Source of the DNA: Candidatus Sericytochromatia bacterium
Lineage (GTDB): Bacteria > Cyanobacteriota > Sericytochromatia > UBA7694
Assembly (NCBI GenBank): GCA_963797915.1
Contig: CAWCRG010000017.1
Span: 299,074 to 363,073, forward strand
Length of the DNA stretch: 64,000 nucleotides
Direction: 5' to 3'
The notes below the pieces were generated by a model. The model had not been told where the DNA came from and searched no databases. It saw nothing but the letters and a program-made list of their open reading frames with translations. The position numbers and the translations under genes are program-made. This document shows positions 40,799-64,000 of the stretch, in pieces; position 1 is the stretch's first letter, and each line of letters starts with the position of its first letter.

Positions 40799-43304
40799 AT
40801 GTCAGATCAATCCAGAGAGCGGGATCTTGTATTGGCCCCCAATGAGTATGCCTTTATTTCGGATCAAACCAAAGGCAATATTAATGTGTATGTGGGCCCC
40901 TACAAAACCAGTTTGGCCAATACAGATCAGCCGGTGTTTTTTGATGAGCAGAGCAAACGCTTTGATCGCTGTGGCTTAGAGCAGGCCACGCGGGTTTTTG
41001 CCACCGCCCCTGAAGGATGGTATATCACCCTTAAAAACCCTGCCGGTGACCAAATGCAGCCTAAAAATGGCACGGTTAATAATTTGCCCGATCTGCAGGT
41101 GGGGCATAAGATTAATTTACCCGGACCGGTTTCTTTTGGCTTATGGCCCGGACAAATGGTGAGGGTACTTAAGGGGCATCACCTGCGCTCTAACCAGTAT
41201 TTACTGGTGCGCGTCTATGACGAAGCCTCAGCCCGCAGTAACTGGACACGGGCCGTGATGAAGCTTCAGGGCAATGTGCCCGAAGAGGGGCTGAATCTGA
41301 AAAGCGCTGCTGAAGAAACGTTAAATCTTGGACAGGAAATGGTGATTCGAGGCACCGAGGTTTCTTTTTATATTCCCCCGACCGGTATTGAAGTTGTTAC
41401 TGACAGGCAGGGCGGGTTGGTGAGAGAAGCGGTAACGTTGGAGCGACTTGAGTACTGCATTTTATTGGATGAAGACGGCAATAAACGCTATATTCAGGGG
41501 CCCGATGTGGTCTTTCCTGAGCCCACAGAACGTTTTGTGGAGCGGCAAGTGAGCGGTGTGCTCTGTAAAAAGTTTCGGGCTGTCGAACTCAATGAAAATA
41601 GCGGCATTTACGTGAAGGTGATTGCGCCCTATACGTCTTCTGACGGCGATAAAGTAACCCAGCATGGCGTGGGCGACGAACTGTTTATTACGGGTAAAGA
41701 TCAGATGATTTATTTTCCGCGCCCGGAACATGCGGTGATTAAGTATGGTGCCCAGGATATTCACTATGCGGTGGCCATTCCTGCGGGCGAAGGGCGTTAT
41801 GTGATGGAGCGTAACACCGGGCAGATTAGACTGGTAAAAGGGCCCCACCATGCTGCTGCCTGACCCCCGGCGAGAGGTCATGATACGGCGCGTACTGACC
41901 ACGCCCCAGGTGCGTCTGTGGTTTCCGGGCAATGCCGAAGCGATGGAGTATAATCACCAATTGCAGGAACTCTTAGCCGATGAAAAGGGAGCTTCGGTAT
42001 TGCCCCTTTCTGTACCCCTTGCGCCGACGGGTGGGCCTGCGGATGCAAAATCTCGCAGCGCTGCCAAATCCTCAAAAAGAGAAGTTACTCCCGCGTTGGC
42101 GGGTGAGGACTTTCATCGCAATACGCAGTATACGCCACCTCGGACCATTACCTTAAACACCAAGTATGATGGGGCGGTCGCGGTGTCCATCTGGACTGGC
42201 TACGCGGTGCTCGTGGTAAGTAAAACCGGAGAGCGTAAAGTCGTGGTGGGTCCACAAACCTACCTGCTGGCGTACGATGAAGCCCTGGAGCCCATGGCTT
42301 TATCTACGGGATCTCCCAAAAGCGAGTCTCAATTGCTTAAAACCGTTTACTTGCGGGTGTTGCACAATAAAATCTCCGATAAAATTCGTGTGGAAACGCG
42401 CGATCTGTGCGAGGTAGAGATTCAGCTTTCTTATCGGGTGAACTTTGAGGGCGATTCCCAATACTGGTTTAATGTGGAGAACTATGTCAAGTTTTTGACG
42501 GAGCATATGCGTTCTCGCATTCGCAACGCGGTCAAGCAGGTGGGTGTGGAAGCTTTTTATAGTCAGGCGGCTGATATCTTGCGCGATACCGTGCTGGGAG
42601 TCAGTGACGGACAACGGACCGGCTGCACCTTTGCTGAAAACGGCATGCGGGTGTATGACGTCGAGGTGCTCAATGTCACGCTGGTGGACCAAAGCGTGGA
42701 GCAATTGTTGATTGCCGCGCAACGGCAAGGGGTTGAGCAGACCTTGCAACTCAACGCCGAACGGCGCAAGCTGGACTTTGTGCAGGCTGAAGAGGTCGTC
42801 AAGCGAGAAATGTCTGAAGCCCGCATTCTCACGGAGACTCAGCATCATGATATAGAGCTTGAACGCTTACACCGTCAGCAGGCCTTACAATTGCAGCAGT
42901 TAAAAAGCCAAAGTGAAGCAGAACAAACCCGCCTGCTCGGCGAATTGGCCAATCAAGAGCAAATGAGTGCGGTGCATGAGGCTGAGTTAATGCGAGAGCG
43001 GGTGCGTTTAGAGCAGGAGTTGGCCATGGCTCACGAACGGACGCAGCAGCGTCTGATGCTGATGCAGGGTGAGGTAGAGGCGATGGCCCGCAAAGCAGAA
43101 GCCATTTCACCTGACCTGATTGCTGCTTTACAGGCTTTTGGCGATAAAGCGCTGGCGGAGCGCATGGCGGCATCGATGGGGCCACTCGCCATTCTCGGCG
43201 GCAATAGCGTGGCCGATGTCTTGTCCCAGCTGCTGGGCGGTACCCAGCTCGAACACCTTGTGCGCAAGGCGATGCCCCTCATGGGCCATATTACTGAAGA
43301 CTGA
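40799..43304 (+). CDS. Major vault protein (MVP) homolog, single gene with apparent frameshift near 41845-41865
   Basis: The N-terminus (LVLAPNEYAFISDQTKGNINVYVGPYKTSLANTDQPVFF) parallels the first MVP repeat of eukaryotic MVP ([38 protein letters not shown]). The C-terminal ORF parallels the MVP shoulder/cap-helix region (…VDQSVEQLLIAAQRQGVEQTLQLNAERRKL…). Combined length is about 835 aa. Confidence 0.6.
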
Positions 43305-46638: not shown

Positions 46639-47757
46639 CTAGTTTTGATCCCGAGCGATGCGCGACACTGAGATGTAGGCATTGGGTTTTGACTGGGCCT
46701 GCGCGCCTTTGAAGTTCTGACGGTGTTTAAAAACCGATTCAAACTCCGCAAAAGACACGCTGCTGGAATCATTGGGATTGTAGGGATCCGCCAATAGCAG
46801 GTTATTGTCTTTATCGATGCCTGTTAGCACAACATAATGGCCCGTGTTACCTATTTGATTGGGGTTATTGTCCATAAACTGAGTGAGCAGAATGACTGAG
46901 TTGCCCTGATTCAGCTCGTTTCGCATGCGTTCCAGCATATCGGTGGCGTTACGCATGCCGTCTTTTTTTTCTCGGTGCACTTCTGCTTCAAGCTTACCTT
47001 CCGAGAGTTTCTCTAGACTTTTAGCCATCGGCTCAGGATCGATGGCTCCTGAATTGCTCACACCCATCAGCTTTCGCATTTCGCCGATGCTCTCAATATT
47101 TCCGGCCAGGCCCTGTTCTTTTAGCACCATTAAGGTACTGGTGGGACCACAAGAGGAGCCTGCTTGTTTGTGTAGTCGCGCCTGTTCACCGCTCAGCCTT
47201 CCTGCCTTGGCGGCATCTTTATCCCGGTTATAGCTGCCTTCGCCGTATTTTTTATCGTAATCAGCAAATTGTTTTGTATGCCAATCTTTGTTTGCACCCG
47301 GCTTATAAAAGTCGACGCCCTTTGGATTAAACTTTCCCTGTGCGCGGGCCTGGGCTTCGTTTCGCTCCTGTGGCTCAAGCATCTGCAATGTAGACTGGCT
47401 TAGTTCTCGGGCCAGGGCCTGGTTTTTAACCTGACCTAACGCCTGACTCACTTGTGCATATTCTTTAGGCGAAAGCTTATGGTCTGAAAAAAGCTTTCCC
47501 GTGCGGGTCTTGTCTTCAATGCCTTGAATAAATCCAGCCAGCAGCTGTTTGTCTTCTGGGCTTAAGTTTTCCTGAGCAAGCAATTGCTGTAAATTTTTGC
47601 CCTCGTCTTTTTGCAAGTGTCTGTCCTGAGTTGCCTGCTGAAAGCTTGAGCTTAAACGGGGAGGAATGGTTGTCATGGGTGTTGACGATCTTTCTGAAGA
47701 TATTAAGGGTACGTAGGAATAAACAAAAAAGCGACTTGTCTCAGCTTGAAGATTCAA
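46639..47757 (-). CDS. Peptidase C39-like (papain-fold cysteine peptidase) domain protein
   Basis: The C-terminal domain has a candidate catalytic Cys (QAGSSCGPTSTLMVL) and His (GHYVVLTGID). The N-terminal ~190 aa are charged, low-complexity and coiled-coil-like. Confidence 0.5.
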   Translation of the reverse strand: MNLQAETSRFFVYSYVPLISSERSSTPMTTIPPRLSSSFQQATQDRHLQKDEGKNLQQLLAQENLSPEDKQLLAGFIQGIEDKTRTGKLFSDHKLSPKEYAQVSQALGQVKNQALARELSQSTLQMLEPQERNEAQARAQGKFNPKGVDFYKPGANKDWHTKQFADYDKKYGEGSYNRDKDAAKAGRLSGEQARLHKQAGSSCGPTSTLMVLKEQGLAGNIESIGEMRKLMGVSNSGAIDPEPMAKSLEKLSEGKLEAEVHREKKDGMRNATDMLERMRNELNQGNSVILLTQFMDNNPNQIGNTGHYVVLTGIDKDNNLLLADPYNPNDSSSVSFAEFESVFKHRQNFKGAQAQSKPNAYISVSRIARDQN

Positions 47758-47802: not shown

Positions 47803-48718
47803 CTAATCTATAATTTTTTTGCCGGGATAGATAGTGGCTCCTGGGGGAGGTGTTCCCTCAACGCCCATATTTCCTTTGTCGCCCATAGGAAAGTTAGGCT
47901 TTTGTCCTGGACTGGGCTTCGTTCCGATGGGTGCCTGGCCGGGTTTACCCGTGGGGAAATTGGGTTTATTACCCAGTTCAGGCTTGGGTTTTTGTCCGTC
48001 GTGAATGTGAGCGCCTTGAGGGGGCTTGCCTTCGGTACCCATTTGAGGTTGCGGCTTTTGTCCCTGGCTAATTTGTGCGTCTTTGGGAGGCTTGCCTTCG
48101 GTACCCATTTGAGGTTGCGGCTTTTGTCCCTGTGAATTTGTGCGTCTTGGGAGGTTTACCTTCGGTACCCATTTGAGGTTGTGGCTTTGTGGTAATTTGT
48201 GCGTCTTTGGGAGGCTTGCCTTCGGTACCCATTTGAGGTTGCGGCTTTTGTCCCTGGCTAATTTGTGCGTCTTTGGGAGGCTTGCCTTCGGTACCCATTT
48301 GAGGTTGCGGCTTTTGTCCCTGGCTAATTTGTGCGTCTTTGGGAGGCTTGCCTTCGGTACCCATTTGAGGTTGCGGCTTTTGTCCCTGGCTAATTTGTGC
48401 GTCTTTGGGAGGCTTGCCTTCGGTACCCATTTGAGGTTGCGGCTTTTGTCCCTGGCTAATTTGTGCGTCTTTGGGAGGTTTACCTTCGGTACCCATTGAA
48501 GGCTTGTCGGGAAATTTTTGAGGGGTTTTAAGACTATCACTTTTCACGGGGGTAGATTGAAGGGTGTCTTTCTGGTCAATGGCTGGCTTCTGTGCTTGAG
48601 TGATGTCCTCTTTTTTAATGTCTTTGTCTTTAACTTCTCCCTTTTTCCCGATAGGGAAGGCGTTTGCTGCGCTATTTACTGCTGAAGACAGAGGGCCGGT
48701 ACTCATACTCATACTCAT
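47803..48718 (-). CDS. Lys/Pro/Gln-rich tandem-repeat protein (22-aa repeats MGTEGKPPKDAQISQGQKPQPQ), frame broken within the repeat array
   Basis: ORFs 48068..48718 and 47803..48540 overlap in two frames. The frame changes at a 64-bp variant repeat copy (48100-48163). No signal peptide. Confidence 0.5.
48034..48520. repeat. 66-bp tandem repeat array (about 7.5 copies; one 64-bp and one 60-bp variant)
   Basis: The anchor ggtaccc recurs at 48034, 48100, 48164, 48224, 48290, 48356, 48422 and 48488. Confidence 0.85.
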
Positions 48719-58385: not shown

Positions 58386-58436
58386 GAAAGATCGTAATGT
58401 TATGATTATCGATAATCTGAGTCATTACGATCTTTA
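58386..58436. promoter_or_regulatory. Nested perfect palindromes upstream of the large lipoprotein gene (terminator and/or operator)
   Basis: 13-bp arms aaagatcgtaatg / cattacgatcttt enclose a 14-bp perfect palindrome gattatcgataatc. Located 25 bp upstream of the 58462 start. Confidence 0.4.
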
Positions 58437-58461
58437 CACGTTTTTCTAAGGGGTATTTATT

Positions 58462-61200
58462 TTGATCTGTTTTAAACATTCCGCGTATGCGTTCGTGTTG
58501 TTCTGTTTCGTTCTGGCTGGCTGTCAGCCGCCAACACAACACAACACAACACAACACAACACAACACAACCTTCTCTTTTAAGCTCGATCCCTCAAATAC
58601 GGTTTTCTAAAGATCGTGTGGCCAATCGCAAAGCCATTATGGAGCATATTCGCTCCACTCAGCCCTTTAGCAACCCCATTGGCCCCGATAGTAATATTTA
58701 TCAAGAGTACTTAAAATACCGTTCCGGTGATTTTAATGTGAAATATTCCTGGGGGCCTGACAGCTATACCGGCGAATTTACCTCTAGAGGTTGTCGCATG
58801 AGCTTTGAGGACGATCCCACTGTCTATCGTGATTATTGGAGTATCCCTTATCACCGTCGCTGTCAAGTGCGCGAGACGGCGAGTGGTGATTGGGGAGTAA
58901 TTGCCGCCTGTGACAGCATTAAAGGATATGAAGGCAGTGGTTACCCCATTTACGATGTGCGCTTAACCTGTAGCAAAAACGCGGGGGGTAGCTGTGCGCT
59001 CTTTAACTTTGCCGCTTCTTTTCACACCTGCGAAACCACTGACGATGACGGTAACTCGGGCTGCTTTGCCCCGCTTAAAAACTCAGATGGTACATCGGTG
59101 CTAGATGCTGGAGGCTCACCGGTTTTGACGCAAGTGGCTTGTGACGGTGACGGTGACAATGAACCGACGGATCCCGATAATACCCCCGTTTTATTTGCGA
59201 TTAGAAATCGCAATCCCGTTTACGGCATGGTGCCCGGAGATGAAGATAATCAGCGGGGGAGTGTCTCACCCGCTGATCAAAACGGCGCTTATGACGCTGT
59301 TGACTTAGACGTCATTGACGATCGCAACGTGGGTTGGTTTTTAAGTGTTGATTTTAATGACCAAGAACTGCTGCGTGTTAATGGCACCGGCTCTCAATCT
59401 AGCATTGACTGGAACCCGAATAATCTGGCCATCTCTGATAATGGCATGGCCCGTATTGCTTTGATTCACGCGGTGACCCAGCGGGTCTTTAATTACAAGG
59501 TAAGGGTAGACAATGATCCTCCGGTGATTAGCGATGTGAGCGTGATGCCGACACAAAATGCTGATGTGGGAATCATTCGCGCTAAGGTTTTAGAGCGTAA
59601 CACAAGAAATTATCAGACTGGGATCAACGAGAGTCGTTTTCAGGTGCATTTCGATTCAGAGGCTCAGCAGCTTCTGGCACCCAGCGTCTCTTTTGACAGC
59701 GAAACGGGCGAGTTTAGTGCTGAATTCAGTGGTTACAGTGCCTATCATAGTGGGCAACAGGGCAGCCCCGAAAGTGAGTTTGGTTTTGAGCTGATCGCCG
59801 AAGACTATGTGGGCAACACGGCCTCTAGCCGCCCGCCCAAAGACAATCTCAAGCTTTCGATCCCCGACAACACTTGGTTCTCGCCCCACGAAGACAGCAC
59901 CAAAAAACAGGTAAGCTTTGACGTGCTGGATGTGGACAACACCGGAGCCAGCTGGACCGTTGAAATTCGCAAAAACGGCCAGGTGTACAAAACCTACACT
60001 GGATCCGGCAGCCAAACCCTGAGCTGGGACGGCCTGTTTGAGGGCGCTGCTGTGTCCGAAGGCAAGTACAATATCGTGCTGAAGAACGCGAAGCAGCCGG
60101 GGAGGGAGCGCGAGCGGGATTTTGCGCAGGTGGGTGTGGATATGAGCCCGCCGGAGATCACTTATCAATTACTAAAAACTTCTCAAGACGATCCCACTAA
60201 AGCCAAAATTAAAATTACTGCTCACGATCCCCAAACTGGTGTAAAAGAGCTGACCTTAAATCAAGTTGCTCAAAATATAATTCCTGGAGTTCCTATTATT
60301 CAGGAGTTGGAAACAGAAACGATTCTGGAAAAGAAATATATTGCAATCTATAACATAATTTATCCCACATTCACTCCTACAGAAAACAGTTTTAAAATAA
60401 CCAATACTCCATCTGACTCCATTGATGATCTACTTGATTATTTAGACAAAACACAAGTACTGGGGGAAGTCACTTCTAGGAGTAACATAAATATCCAGTC
60501 TTCTAAACCGATTACTTATAAAGGCTTAAGACCCTTAAAGTGTCAATCATATAAAGCCAACGGTACTTCAGGAAAAAGTCAATTTGAGCTAAGCTTAATG
60601 TATGATTTCGATCCTGAAGGTCCTGATTTGACTGCTATTATTTTACCTACTCAGAGCAACTATCAACCATTGGGACCTGGAGATGTAATGACGAGTGTTA
60701 TAGATGTTCCTGGTGTGAGCTCCGGTACAAATCTCAAATTGCAATTCCCTTTTTCGCAACAAAAGCAAGCAAAAATAAATGAAAAAAGAAATGCTGCAAA
60801 CGCCTTGTTTACGGAAACGAAAATTCTTAGATCTCAAGGGAAAGTAGCAAATGCTTTAGGGAAAGAAAATAGAGCAAACCTCTTGTCTGTAGATGCTCAA
60901 GTTTTAATTAATCTTGCGAACGATGAAGTAATAAGATTTGACCAAGCTACTAATGCTGCTTATTTGACTAATAGAGGTGTTTCATATAATCAAATGTACA
61001 ACCAGTATTTGTCTAATAGTCCAACTTTAGCCAGAGTTATGTCAGATATGTCTAAGTTTAAGCTGTCTTCCAATTTAAAGCTTAACAATAAAGGCTACGC
61101 TCAGTTGTTATTTTCAGGAATAAATTTGGATAGAATAAGAGACTCGCTTCAAGGTAGTGGTTCAGGCTCTTTTGAGAATTACTATAAGAAATGGTGGTGA
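58462..61200 (+). CDS. Large modular surface/secreted lipoprotein (912 aa) with a GC-typical body and an AT-rich C-terminal region
   Basis: Lipobox FVLAGC at residues 16-21. An AACAC repeat lies immediately after the lipobox Cys. Asp/Gly-rich calcium-binding-like segments. A ~105-bp block at 60056-60160 is repeated downstream. GC drops sharply after about 60165. Confidence 0.6.
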   Translation: MICFKHSAYAFVLFCFVLAGCQPPTQHNTTQHNTTQPSLLSSIPQIRFSKDRVANRKAIMEHIRSTQPFSNPIGPDSNIYQEYLKYRSGDFNVKYSWGPDSYTGEFTSRGCRMSFEDDPTVYRDYWSIPYHRRCQVRETASGDWGVIAACDSIKGYEGSGYPIYDVRLTCSKNAGGSCALFNFAASFHTCETTDDDGNSGCFAPLKNSDGTSVLDAGGSPVLTQVACDGDGDNEPTDPDNTPVLFAIRNRNPVYGMVPGDEDNQRGSVSPADQNGAYDAVDLDVIDDRNVGWFLSVDFNDQELLRVNGTGSQSSIDWNPNNLAISDNGMARIALIHAVTQRVFNYKVRVDNDPPVISDVSVMPTQNADVGIIRAKVLERNTRNYQTGINESRFQVHFDSEAQQLLAPSVSFDSETGEFSAEFSGYSAYHSGQQGSPESEFGFELIAEDYVGNTASSRPPKDNLKLSIPDNTWFSPHEDSTKKQVSFDVLDVDNTGASWTVEIRKNGQVYKTYTGSGSQTLSWDGLFEGAAVSEGKYNIVLKNAKQPGRERERDFAQVGVDMSPPEITYQLLKTSQDDPTKAKIKITAHDPQTGVKELTLNQVAQNIIPGVPIIQELETETILEKKYIAIYNIIYPTFTPTENSFKITNTPSDSIDDLLDYLDKTQVLGEVTSRSNINIQSSKPITYKGLRPLKCQSYKANGTSGKSQFELSLMYDFDPEGPDLTAIILPTQSNYQPLGPGDVMTSVIDVPGVSSGTNLKLQFPFSQQKQAKINEKRNAANALFTETKILRSQGKVANALGKENRANLLSVDAQVLINLANDEVIRFDQATNAAYLTNRGVSYNQMYNQYLSNSPTLARVMSDMSKFKLSSNLKLNNKGYAQLLFSGINLDRIRDSLQGSGSGSFENYYKKWW
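58533..58570 (+). repeat. Pentanucleotide microsatellite (AACAC)x7.6 inside the 5' coding region
   Basis: Read directly: aacac aacac aacac aacac aacac aacac aacac aac, encoding (QHNTT)n just after the lipoprotein signal peptide. Confidence 0.9.
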
Positions 61201-61269
61201 AACGCACTATATAGACTTTTTACTAACCAAAATTAGCGATACTGGTACTGGTAAAAATAGAAGAGTAAT

Positions 61270-61906
61270 ATGGGAGCAAACGTGTTTATGAAAGTAATTT
61301 CTTCACTTTGTAGAATGAGTCTGGTTGCAGTTATCAGTTATTTTTGTTTGATTCCGCAGGCAACATCTGAAGTTTTGAATTTGGGGTTTCTTCGATATGA
61401 AAACATTGATCAAACAATAATAGGTCCCCTACCCAATTGTTTATTTCCAGTAGCGGTAGATCTGTCTGTGAGTCAGTTTAAGAAAGGATATAATGATCAT
61501 TATCAGCTAACGACATTTGACCACTACATACAGTTTGTGATCAAAATTTCCATTCTGTTTAGGCGGTGATTCCAAAGGCATTGCTGTTGTACAATCAGGA
61601 AAAATAGCCGGTTATCTTTTACTAGAGCCCGTTGATCTATATCGATATGTTGAAAAACAAAGTATCATCGAATATATTACCCGTCAAACAAATCATTCTG
61701 ATTTTCTGCCTGAAAGTTTAAGAGCATCTTCGGGACAGCCATTAAATTTGTACGTGTTTCCTGAAGGCAATTACATCAAGCAGTACCTGATGTATGGAGA
61801 AGACACTATTTTATATGAGGGTCTTATAAAGTCTGACCTGTCTGCTGAGATAAAAAATATTCTGTTTGACTATGTCACGGAATATATTCAAAGCTTGCCA
61901 TCTTGA
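61270..61906 (+). CDS. AT-rich small protein with N-terminal hydrophobic/signal segment, candidate partner or immunity protein of the preceding C-terminal module (frameshift near 61545-61569)
   Basis: ORF 61270..61569 (MKVISSLCRMSLVAVISYFCLIPQATS…) continues without a start codon in the +1 frame from 61541 to a stop at 61904-61906. About 33% GC. Confidence 0.35.
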
Positions 61907-61989
61907 AGCTTTCTTCTGCCCCATAAAGTTGAGGTTCAATGAGACTTTAATCCACTGCAGGCTTATGCAAGCATAACGAGTTGGTGTGT

Positions 61990-62177
61990 CGCCAACGAAG
62001 AAGCGTTCAGTGTGTAAAACTACACGGTCGCAGCCAAATCCTGAGCTGGGACGGCTGCAAGGACAACTGTACCCGAAGGCAAGTACAACATCGTGCTGAA
62101 GAACGCAAAGCAGCCGGGCAAAGAGCGGGAGCGGGATTTTGCGCAGGTGGGTGTGGATATGAGCCCGCCGGAGATCA
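61990..62177 (+). repeat. Homology block duplicated from the main lipoprotein gene, a candidate recombination junction
   Basis: 62073-62177 is about 93% identical to 60056-60160 (…ccgaaggcaagtacaa…gagcccgccggagatca). Degenerate similarity extends upstream to about 61995 versus 59975. A 5-nt length difference upstream breaks the frame. Confidence 0.8.
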
Positions 62178-63073
62178 GTTACGAGATTGTGCGAACGGCC
62201 TCGGGTCGCAACACGGGCCAGTTAAAGATCGTGGTGACAGACAAGCAGTCGGGTGTTGATGCTGCTGCGACGGTGGCTACAAATGCCAGCGGTCAAATTC
62301 AGCCTGGGGTGCCGGTGATTCAGCAGGTGTTAACGGACAAGGAGAAAGTGGAACCCAAGCGCCAGGTGCGTTTTTATCAGCTGCTGTTTCCTGACTTTTT
62401 ACCCACAGAGACGCAGGCGGGTGGGGGTGATTTTCGGGTGGCGGCGGAAGGGGAAGCCCCTGCGGAGGCTGGCGTGGTTAACTTTGGTTCTGGACAAGTT
62501 CGCGATAATGTAGGGATCCCGTTTCAAATCGCTTACTCTTCACCTACCAATCCTTCGGAAATCGAAATAAAAAATCCTGGCAAATGCGTTTCTGGAAACG
62601 GAACTTTTAAAATTCATAAAATATACGATTTCGATTCTAGAACGGTCAAAAATGACGGCTCTGTAGATGAACGACCGGATCTTACGCTTGTTATTTTACC
62701 CAGTACGAATACCCCACAAGCACGAAAAGCAACAAATTTGGCTAAGCATTGTTTGCAATGTAATGCGCAAATTACGTCCACTCCGATTACCACAAACTTG
62801 AATAGCAATGAGTCTTACTCAGTTAGTACCATATACGATCCCAAAACAGGATTAGGGGGTGTGGCTCCAAACTTCCCGGAGGCTAAACCCATAACTTATC
62901 AAGTTGAGAACAGACAGGGAACAGCAAATTTATTAATTCAATCTGCTTGCAAAGGTAACTTGGGTTGCGCAGAAGGGTTAAAGCGAGATGAGTCTTCTTT
63001 TTACGTAGGAAGCAAAAATATTTTAGCTGGACTTGGACCATCGGCACAAGAAAATATTAGGCGGACTTCCTAA
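62093..63073 (+). CDS. Silent/orphan alternative C-terminal cassette homologous to residues ~545-900 of the large lipoprotein
   Basis: The translation begins inside the shared block (LKNAKQPGKERERDFAQVGVDMSPPEISY versus LKNAKQPGRERERDFAQVGVDMSPPEITY). It then parallels the main gene at about 35% identity (GVPVIQQV versus GVPIIQEL; RPDLTLVILPSTN versus GPDLTAIILPTQSN). It has only an internal GTG start and no RBS or lipoprotein N-terminus. Confidence 0.5.
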   Translation: MLKNAKQPGKERERDFAQVGVDMSPPEISYEIVRTASGRNTGQLKIVVTDKQSGVDAAATVATNASGQIQPGVPVIQQVLTDKEKVEPKRQVRFYQLLFPDFLPTETQAGGGDFRVAAEGEAPAEAGVVNFGSGQVRDNVGIPFQIAYSSPTNPSEIEIKNPGKCVSGNGTFKIHKIYDFDSRTVKNDGSVDERPDLTLVILPSTNTPQARKATNLAKHCLQCNAQITSTPITTNLNSNESYSVSTIYDPKTGLGGVAPNFPEAKPITYQVENRQGTANLLIQSACKGNLGCAEGLKRDESSFYVGSKNILAGLGPSAQENIRRTS

Positions 63074-63252
63074 AAATCATCCTTACAGTAGCACCATCTT
63101 TGTAATGGGGGTCGATCTAGATGTTGCTCTTTCTCTTGGCTATAATCCGACCCTTAATATCAACTTAAATAAACTCAGTCAAAGCAATAATATAAAAGTC
63201 AAACTGATAAGAAACAATCAGGGGCGCTGGCAAGCAGAGTGTCAAGGAGCAA

Positions 63253-63921
63253 ATGGAAATGGGTAAGATATTTATGAGTTCATATGTGGGTAATATGAAA
63301 ATACCGCTAGGTATACTAATGCTTCTAATGGTTTACCTGCCCGCAAGGTCCCAGTCAAATCAGTACCCTTCTCCTATTGTTGAGGTGAAAAGGGAATTGG
63401 GCAATCCTGCTCAAGGGGCAATGGGAGGAGTTTTACTCAATCAAAACTTAAGTGACTCATACGAGTTTTCCCCTTTAGTCAGAGGTTTGGGCAAAACCAG
63501 GGCAGAAATAAAAATACCCGGCTATCTCACAAAGAGCATCGGAGACATTCAGATAAACCAGGAGCTTTTCACTTTGGTTGAACATAAAAACGGTTCTTTC
63601 GTATCTCAGTACTATCTCAAGAACAAAGTAATCTTGGGTTACGTTCTTCATGATTTTTTACCCGTTACATATCACGGTGATGAGCTTTTTTTAAAACAAA
63701 TAGACACCTTTCCGAATGACTGTAGTGAGTATCTGAGTACAAAAATAGTATCTTCTACGGTAAGTTTTGATTGTTTTAAGAAAGAACATGATAATTATGT
63801 AGAAGAGTATATTTTTGAGGTGATAAATGAGCCTGATTACGTGGCCAGAATTTTGATATTAGATGCTTTCTACCGAAAAATCTGGAGCAAAATGCCAAGC
63901 AAAAAATCAATCAAATTATAG
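63253..63921 (+). CDS. AT-rich small secreted protein, candidate partner or immunity protein for the orphan cassette
   Basis: Signal peptide (MKIPLGILMLLMVYLPARSQS), 222 aa, about 35% GC, directly downstream of the orphan cassette. Confidence 0.4.
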   Translation: MEMGKIFMSSYVGNMKIPLGILMLLMVYLPARSQSNQYPSPIVEVKRELGNPAQGAMGGVLLNQNLSDSYEFSPLVRGLGKTRAEIKIPGYLTKSIGDIQINQELFTLVEHKNGSFVSQYYLKNKVILGYVLHDFLPVTYHGDELFLKQIDTFPNDCSEYLSTKIVSSTVSFDCFKKEHDNYVEEYIFEVINEPDYVARILILDAFYRKIWSKMPSKKSIKL

Positions 63922-64000
63922 ATGTCGTTTTATCTGAGTAAGGCTTTATGAGTACTCACAACGGCTTAGATAGTTGCTATGTAAAAAACCTACTTTCGTT

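Follow-up and report, generated by a model that had tools for sequence, protein, structure and literature searches.

In the 64,000-nt stretch of the Candidatus Sericytochromatia contig CAWCRG010000017.1 analysed here (hereafter the window), a gene for a large lipoprotein, which occupies positions 58462–61200 and lies on the + strand together with all other elements of the locus described below, carries a perfect pentanucleotide microsatellite shortly behind the signal for lipid attachment. This tract, (CAACA)×7.8 at positions 58532–58570 or (AACAC)×7.6 in another phase, is long and uninterrupted, is placed at the 5′ end of the coding sequence and is built of a non-triplet unit, changes in the number of which bring premature stops into frame, i.e. 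it has the anatomy of a phase-variation switch. It was characterised by Tandem Repeats Finder, extension of the tract, frame simulation and a census of repeats combined with shuffling. Given what is directly observed, namely the tract, its position, its effect on the frame, the lipoprotein signal and the tether context, we consider it an even chance that slipped-strand mispairing controls the gene as a functional switch of translation, like those known from opa of Neisseria and hop of Helicobacter. The appearance of frameshift variants at an elevated rate is likely, while a useful rate of slippage in this particular organism, its reversibility and its selective maintenance are what we infer.

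The pentanucleotide tract and its reading frames

Tandem Repeats Finder delimited the tract as 58532–58570 with a period of 5, 7.8 copies, 100% matches and 0 indels, and extension of the period-5 identity by hand gave the identical 39-nt tract, CAACACAAC...CAAC, with GGCTGGCTGTCAGCCGC and CTTCTCTTTTAAGCTCGATCC as its unique flanks. The first-pass annotation, made from the sequence of the same window, had described the repeat in the AACAC phase (58533–58570, 7.6 copies), had placed it in the coding region, directly behind the lipobox cysteine, and had assigned to it the in-frame repeat peptide (QHNTT)n. Both methods of delimitation and the positions of the open reading frame (ORF) and of the lipobox agree with this description: the tract sits in codons 24–36 of the ORF 58462–61200 and encodes PTQHNTTQHNTTQ. 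The distance from the beginning of the coding sequence, given there as about 60 bp, was corrected to 70 nt, which is 7 nt past the Cys codon and corresponds to three codons after the lipobox cysteine. In a census of perfect tracts with periods from 1 to 9 it turned out to be the only long microsatellite of the window, the runner-up being a 19-nt hexamer run, and in 50 shuffled versions of the window the longest period-5 tract had a mean length of 12.6 nt and a maximum of 16 nt. The tract is real and far beyond chance. Identical nucleotides in all its units point to origin and turnover at the level of DNA, rather than to selection acting on the peptide.

For such a tract to control translation, its position relative to the start codon is essential. 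An in-frame TAA at 58447–58449 bounds the ORF, and TTG 58462 is therefore the first possible start. It is preceded, at a distance of 8 nt, by the Shine-Dalgarno-like sequence AAGGGG (58448–58453), as read from the sequence, and is the only start that gives a lipoprotein signal (58462–58524). The N-terminus MICFKHSAYAFVLFCFVLAG followed by C fits the PROSITE-type lipoprotein pattern with K5 and Cys21 (codon 58522–58524, preceded by FVLFCFVLAG). The h-region is hydrophobic, the n-region carries a positive charge, the lipobox corresponds to [LVI][ASTVI][GAS]C and the cysteine falls within residues 15–35, as expected for type II signal peptides. The same pattern is satisfied in five homologues. 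A start located downstream of the tract was rejected, as it would lose the canonical lipoprotein signal kept in these five proteins. Most probably, translation begins at TTG 58462, upstream of the repeat.

Consequences of unit gain and loss were simulated in the range from −4 to +4 units. The frame stays open with 0 and ±3 units, meets a stop 12 codons past the tract with −1 or +2 units and a stop only 3 codons past it with +1 or −2 units. The expectation that a change by one unit shifts the frame, 5 not being divisible by 3, was thereby confirmed. As the tract itself is free of stops in all forward frames, the switch would act purely via the downstream frame. According to the mechanism proposed, the tract, which lies in the first 5% of a surface-lipoprotein gene, would be hypermutable, slipped-strand mispairing at replication leading to the gain or loss of units of 5 nt. 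As long as there are 7.8 units, or three units more or fewer, translation from TTG 58462 would run through the whole gene and produce the lipid-anchored protein (ON), and with other unit numbers the stop 3–12 codons past the tract would leave only a prolipopeptide of 36–52 residues (OFF).

The protein context appears to be permissive for such changes. The predicted layout of the product comprises a disordered N-terminal tether, immunoglobulin (Ig)-like beta-sandwiches at approximately aa 280–635 and a variable C-terminal region at approximately aa 560–912. In the AlphaFold2 model, which was run on a 16-sequence alignment and has a mean predicted local distance difference test score (pLDDT) of 52, only the central Ig-like region is confident: pLDDT is 26–36 over residues 1–50, the beta-sandwiches of aa ~280–635 are predicted with confidence, and the C-terminus is unreliable and partly helical. 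The (QHNTT)n peptide would thus belong to the disordered, P/T/Q-rich tether that connects the lipid anchor to the folded domains, and since in-frame changes in the length of a disordered tether would be harmless, the tract would be free to expand and contract.

Switches with this anatomy are well known. In Helicobacter pylori, the hop, oipA and sabA genes carry non-triplet simple sequence repeats (SSRs) in the 5′ coding region of outer-surface protein genes, and slippage truncates the product. Tetranucleotide loci of Haemophilus influenzae are similar to the tract described here in the same respects, that is in a non-triplet SSR located in the 5′ coding part of an outer-surface gene and in truncation by slippage (general criteria in PMC5909438). 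Unlike these host-adapted pathogens with their many loci, the window has one tract in 64 kb and its relatives have none in 133 kb. The closest parallel is provided by opa genes of Neisseria, in which CTCTT units are repeated in the region encoding the leader peptide. Common to both are a pentanucleotide unit, a place at the very start of the coding sequence, within or adjacent to the export signal, a frame-dependent translational ON/OFF effect, a surface protein as the product and the class of 6–8 copies. For opa tracts, 0.09 changes per month of carriage were registered at 6–8 units versus 0.007 at five or fewer (PMC7157529), and 7.8 units place the window tract in the measurably switching range. 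It also exceeds the threshold of at least three units proposed for candidate phase-variable genes with units of at least 3 nt, and tracts of GCACA[n] differ among strains from 4 to 48 units (PMC5909438). In prokaryotes in general, indel variability of SSRs increases steeply as tracts become longer, and protein termini show more of it than other parts (PMC3315296). The differences from opa are equally clear. The tract of the window lies past the lipobox cysteine in the mature tether, whereas the opa tract is inside the hydrophobic leader; it represents a single locus rather than a multigene family of switchable copies; and an Ig-like lipoprotein of an environmental Sericytochromatia-like host, known here from sequence alone, stands against an eight-stranded beta-barrel. 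With no homology to Opa detected in Pfam or NCBIfam and with an AACAC unit placed after the cleavage site, the gene does not belong to the Opa family, and the resemblance is one of mechanism only.

The lipoprotein family, its partners and cassettes

The gene itself was described from the ORF list, a HMMER-derived family, alignment, Pfam and AlphaFold2. A word-indexed search with the 912-aa protein returned the query alone, and its protein cluster has one member from one contig. The family was recovered by a full HMMER scan of 1.8 billion representatives, and its members are of two kinds: full-length lipoproteins of 613–1080 aa with 30–35% identity over aa ~140–730, and shorter ORFs starting at a conserved block (aa ~468–560). 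In all full-length members the lipobox is followed by a P/T/Q-rich linker, which often begins with C-Q-P, as in the gene of the window, and most C-termini of the family finish in the motif W-x-V-x-C. Ig-like domains FlgD_ig and CHU_C of Pfam were found in 8–9 of the 16 family members. Pfam and NCBIfam gave zero matches for the lipoprotein, the orphan cassette and the partner genes of the window, a profile search against PDB sequences gave only marginal matches to FlgD Ig-like domains, and a recognised toxin domain was not found anywhere in the family (Pfam, NCBIfam). Judging from these comparisons, the family is one of uncharacterised polymorphic lipoproteins in which Ig-like domains are combined with a variable C-terminus and which are accompanied by a small exported partner.

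In every recovered locus the large gene is directly followed by a small one, encoding an exported product of ~210–260 aa. The small partner proteins constitute one divergent family with a common FYP motif. In the window the partner gene occupies positions 61270–61906, where it is frameshifted at ~61538, and its intact counterpart (211 aa) is found at 2420–3055 of L003, a contig from JGI with 95% identity across the part compared, which served as the reference for comparison. A second large-gene fragment follows at 61892–63266. BLAST and translated comparison with the gene characterise it as a 5′-truncated and degenerate orphan C-terminal cassette, 35–37% identical at the aa level to aa 466–735 of the gene and containing a 157-nt core with 86% nucleotide identity. 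It has stops at the 5′ end and a frameshift near 63040, no start was found ahead of the onset of homology, and its C-terminus resembles that of the homologue P0006. Its own small exported partner (63253–63921, 222 aa) has a start overlapping the end of the cassette. The possibility that the two small ORFs of the window are recent tandem copies of a two-gene module was rejected, as tblastn detected no significant similarity between them; they are distant members of one family. Loci of the family span positions 58462–64000 in the window, 1–7109 in L003, 1228–7567 in L009, 10001–13269 in L007 and 8001–15010 in L012.

Fragments of the same type, 5′-truncated and each supplied with its own small gene, were found in L003, L007, L009, L010 and L012. 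A conserved block, located inside the gene at 59950–60165 (...EGKYNIVLKNAKQPGRERERDFAQVGVDMSPPEI...), was revealed by BLAST and by alignment of copies, and every cassette, whether downstream or orphan, repeats it at the 5′ end. Its ~110–200 nt are common to seven junction copies, upstream of which the sequences diverge at differing truncation points, and divergence resumes downstream as well. The block is likely a homology handle for recombination. In the model proposed, the switched gene would serve as the expression copy, and its C-terminal module together with the cognate partner would be exchangeable with downstream orphan cassettes via this block. The second layer of variation suggested in the first-pass annotation, a C-terminal cassette system, is thereby supported by the arrays of 5′-truncated C-terminal fragments with one conserved block present in related contigs. 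Two apparent mosaics were also registered. One of them (L004 736–1220) joins 5′ sequence similar to that of the expression gene with the variable region of the window's orphan cassette, and in the other (L003 1697–2441, L003_a) the conserved block (…VGVDMS) is fused to the distal C-terminal part (SGTNLKL…), so that ~200 codons are skipped. Both come from other samples and may be products of recombination or deletion.

Two types of known systems have a comparable organisation. Gene conversion underlies antigenic variation in pilE/pilS, vlsE and MgpB/MgPar. The locus shares with them one complete expression gene accompanied by promoterless partial copies with short conserved blocks, as well as apparent mosaics, and differs from them in having homology blocks only at the 5′ side and an individual partner gene for each cassette, the comparison being based here on sequence. 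Silent partial copies that appear to have neither start nor promoter and share a block of homology correspond to the layout of gene-conversion cassettes. Polymorphic toxins (CdiA-CT/CdiI, Rhs, MafB of Neisseria (PMC4287609) and SitA (PMC5562445)) are alike in being large exported proteins that combine a conserved N-terminal and central part with a C-terminus that varies from a conserved block onwards, in having a small gene that abuts or overlaps each C-terminal module and in forming arrays of 5′-truncated C-terminal/partner pairs. With the SitA toxins of Myxococcus the family also shares a lipoprotein as the carrier (PMC5562445). Unlike polymorphic toxin loci, it has no known toxin domain, its partners carry signal peptides, and C-termini and partners each form one divergent family (with the W-x-V-x-C end and the FYP motif, respectively) instead of unrelated folds. 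To our knowledge, polymorphic toxin systems are not switched by SSRs. A conserved body, a variable C-terminus and a small cognate gene for each C-terminus nevertheless suggest a polymorphic-toxin-like architecture, and by analogy the system may have a toxin/immunity- or recognition-like function.

Genomic setting and state of the locus

Upstream of the lipoprotein gene the window contains chromosomal genes for FtsZ, FabH, a GH57 branching enzyme, a DUF4912 protein and a TANGO2-family protein. In a scan of genome contigs the TANGO2 query matched two metagenome-assembled genomes (MAGs) of Candidatus Sericytochromatia with 78% and 57% identity. Both keep the order GH57–DUF4912–TANGO2, and in both TANGO2 is followed by a convergent HAD-type gene and not by the lipoprotein. 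GC content falls from ~0.55 to 0.38–0.43 across 60–64 kb. Based on this synteny without the lipoprotein and on the drop in GC content, the locus is assigned to a strain-specific low-GC island in a Sericytochromatia-like genome.

The 113-nt intergenic region behind TANGO2 contains a strong hairpin (58386–58436, fold z = −4.0, with promoter and terminator scan), formed by a 13-bp perfect stem AAAGATCGTAATG...CATTACGATCTTT around a 12-bp palindrome ATTATCGATAAT and followed by ACACGTTTTTCT. It is possibly a terminator of the upstream TANGO2 gene, or else an operator or regulatory site.

The 3′ part of the locus differs from its relative. Alignment with L003 revealed one extra T in the T-run at ~61168–61173, owing to which the ORF of the window ends with ...SFENYYKKWW and a stop, and loses the last 41 residues up to the family-typical end ...RVIWEQTCL. 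This C-terminus continues in the alternative frame (61157–61291, ...RITIRNGGETHYIDFLLTKISDTGTGKNRRVIWEQTCL and stop), as judged from the alignment with L003 and from P0002. In the intact layout of L003 the stop TGA of the longer frame and the start ATG of the partner gene share bases (TTATGA). The protein of 912 aa, which the first-pass annotation had taken as the object of switching, consequently stood in one respect and changed in another: the ORF is indeed open for 912 codons, and it is probably a 3′-frameshifted version of a protein of ~944 aa. One more base is inserted at ~61538, and it disrupts the partner gene of the window; the part of L003 to be compared for the two insertions is 2235–2750. 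Elsewhere in the window the genes are intact, and a generally error-prone assembly was therefore rejected as the source of these frameshifts. They are local, either as lesions or as consensus errors where the region is heterogeneous.

Among the relatives, L005 (Logan ERR3588747, 86% nucleotide identity) is the closest at this site. In its segment 1–981 the TANGO2 gene has behind it two remnants only, one from a partner gene and one from the conserved block; next comes a membrane gene on the minus strand. The 5′ end of the lipoprotein gene is absent from it. The island appears to be largely deleted in L005 and, from such comparisons, is clearly in flux.

Two other features of the window may be mentioned. 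A 66-bp tandem repeat (48023–48497, 7.3 copies, 93% identity) is located in the minus-strand ORF 47803–48540 and encodes 22-residue units (…LKWVPKASLPKTHKLARDKSRN…) of a Pro/Lys-rich protein adjoining a peptidase C39-like gene (46639–47757). The ORF 41850–43304 combines Major Vault Protein shoulder, Vault_3 and SPFH/Band 7 domains, which is unusual for a bacterium.

Switch or incidental repeat

Several observations weigh against a working switch. A second copy of the gene's 5′ end was not found in any collection searched, and hence there is no evidence of variation in the repeat number: the assembly collection contained no exact record of the lipoprotein or of the upstream TANGO2 protein, the exact pattern of the left flank with the beginning of the repeat gave 0 matches in JGI metagenome contigs, the N-terminal 480 aa had 0 confirmed relatives in metagenome contigs, and the lipoprotein query found no relative in species-representative genome contigs. 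Most probably, the sequence is a consensus assembled from a metagenome, in which heterogeneity, if present, is not visible. A comparable repeat is absent from the five full-length homologues, and in 133 kb of related Sericytochromatia loci there is no SSR longer than 11 nt. With no other long SSR in the 64-kb window, in these 133 kb and in the homologues, there is no sign of a genome-wide contingency strategy, and several switch loci per genome, which would have given additional support, were not observed within these limits. Finally, the frameshifts in the 3′ end of the gene and in the partner suggest that the locus may be decaying or that selection on it may be relaxed; the tract would then possibly be an incidental expansion.

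The last point leads to an explanation that we regard as a serious, if less probable, candidate: a linker microsatellite grown by slippage from a proto-repeat (CCAACACAAC) in an insertion-tolerant tether, perhaps unstable and not maintained as a switch. Out-of-frame variants would then be merely deleterious or neutral losses in an already decaying locus. Homologues share the type of linker without the repeat, and the L010 homologue, which has TGT CAG CCC ACA CAA GCA CCA ACT (CQPTQAPT) at the equivalent site, provides a plausible ancestral context; this suggests a recent origin of the tract, by expansion of a proto-repeat of ACACAA type present in the linker. The lack of other SSRs in 64 + 133 kb, the frameshifts in the gene's 3′ end, the partner and the orphan cassette, which are suggestive of relaxed selection, and the generally better tolerance of SSRs at protein termini (PMC3315296) are in line with the same view. 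However, the frame of 912 codons is still open through the repeat, long non-triplet SSRs in coding sequences are generally selected against unless useful (PMC3315296; PMC5909438), and perfection of the tract implies that turnover is recent or still going on, not that the repeat is an ancient leftover.

An artefact of assembly in the tract or in its copy number, or a dead pseudogene, would have no functional consequence at all. The probable origin of the sequence from a MAG, the clustering of several frameshifts in the island and the multi-copy conserved blocks, which invite chimeric assembly, are all compatible with this, but the tract, with its 39 nt, fits within single reads and within k-mers of the size usual in assembly, so that its length was read directly, and both the intact state of the remaining window genes and the ORF open for 912 codons speak for a real gene; we find such an outcome improbable. 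Still less credence, indeed very little, can be given to a switch with three states. It is conceivable from the frame arithmetic, which follows from the sequence, since an out-of-frame ATG at 58487–58489 (+1 frame) joins the frame of the gene body after −1 or +2 units and starts the sequence MRSCCSVSFWLAVSRQHNTT... without a lipobox. The resulting form (MRSCCSVSFWLAVS followed by RQHN...) would perhaps be secreted or cytoplasmic, while +1 or −2 units would give no product. A check for hydrophobicity and pattern showed that this speculative N-terminus contains a single Arg and that 11 of its residues form a moderately hydrophobic stretch, the mean Kyte–Doolittle (KD) value of which is 1.68, yet the stretch is short, no lipobox is matched, no Shine-Dalgarno-like sequence precedes ATG 58487, and an out-of-frame ATG at such a place is not unlikely by chance.

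Returning to the translational switch, the reading of the tract as a contingency locus, made in the first-pass annotation, thus agrees with the anatomy and is weakened by the lack of other repeats, by homologues without the tract and by the frameshifted locus. It is also supported by the nature of the gene, as a polymorphic family with cassettes, situated in a strain-specific island, is by analogy the sort that is typically phase-variable. Adaptive maintenance is much less certain than slippage as such, because the tract is the sole one of its kind, the homologues lack the repeat and the gene shows signs of decay. The most complete scenario, in which this would be the first contingency locus of Sericytochromatia, with slippage gating a polymorphic lipoprotein system whose C-terminal module and partner are exchanged by cassettes, and possibly with a third, non-lipidated state, is rather unlikely in its entirety.

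The mechanism considered here is already known, and it is the lineage and the target gene family that are new; we found no literature linking phase variation with Sericytochromatia or Melainabacteria. If the repeat proves to be invariant, it will be a mere curiosity in a decaying locus, and if it varies, it will offer a handle, readable from sequence, on when the cells display the protein. The family of lipoprotein and partner cassettes is a more original outcome than the repeat itself, and the controlled gene is arguably of more interest than the switch, because its swappable C-terminal modules and partners resemble systems of polymorphic toxins with their immunity proteins or of kin recognition. 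Nearly all known cases of phase variation by SSRs come from host-adapted bacteria, either pathogens or commensals. If the switch is real, one gene of a free-living environmental bacterium would combine stochastic ON/OFF control with modular switching of specificity, and this bet-hedging strategy would extend to an uncultured environmental relative of cyanobacteria, and so to a wider range of lineages and habitats.

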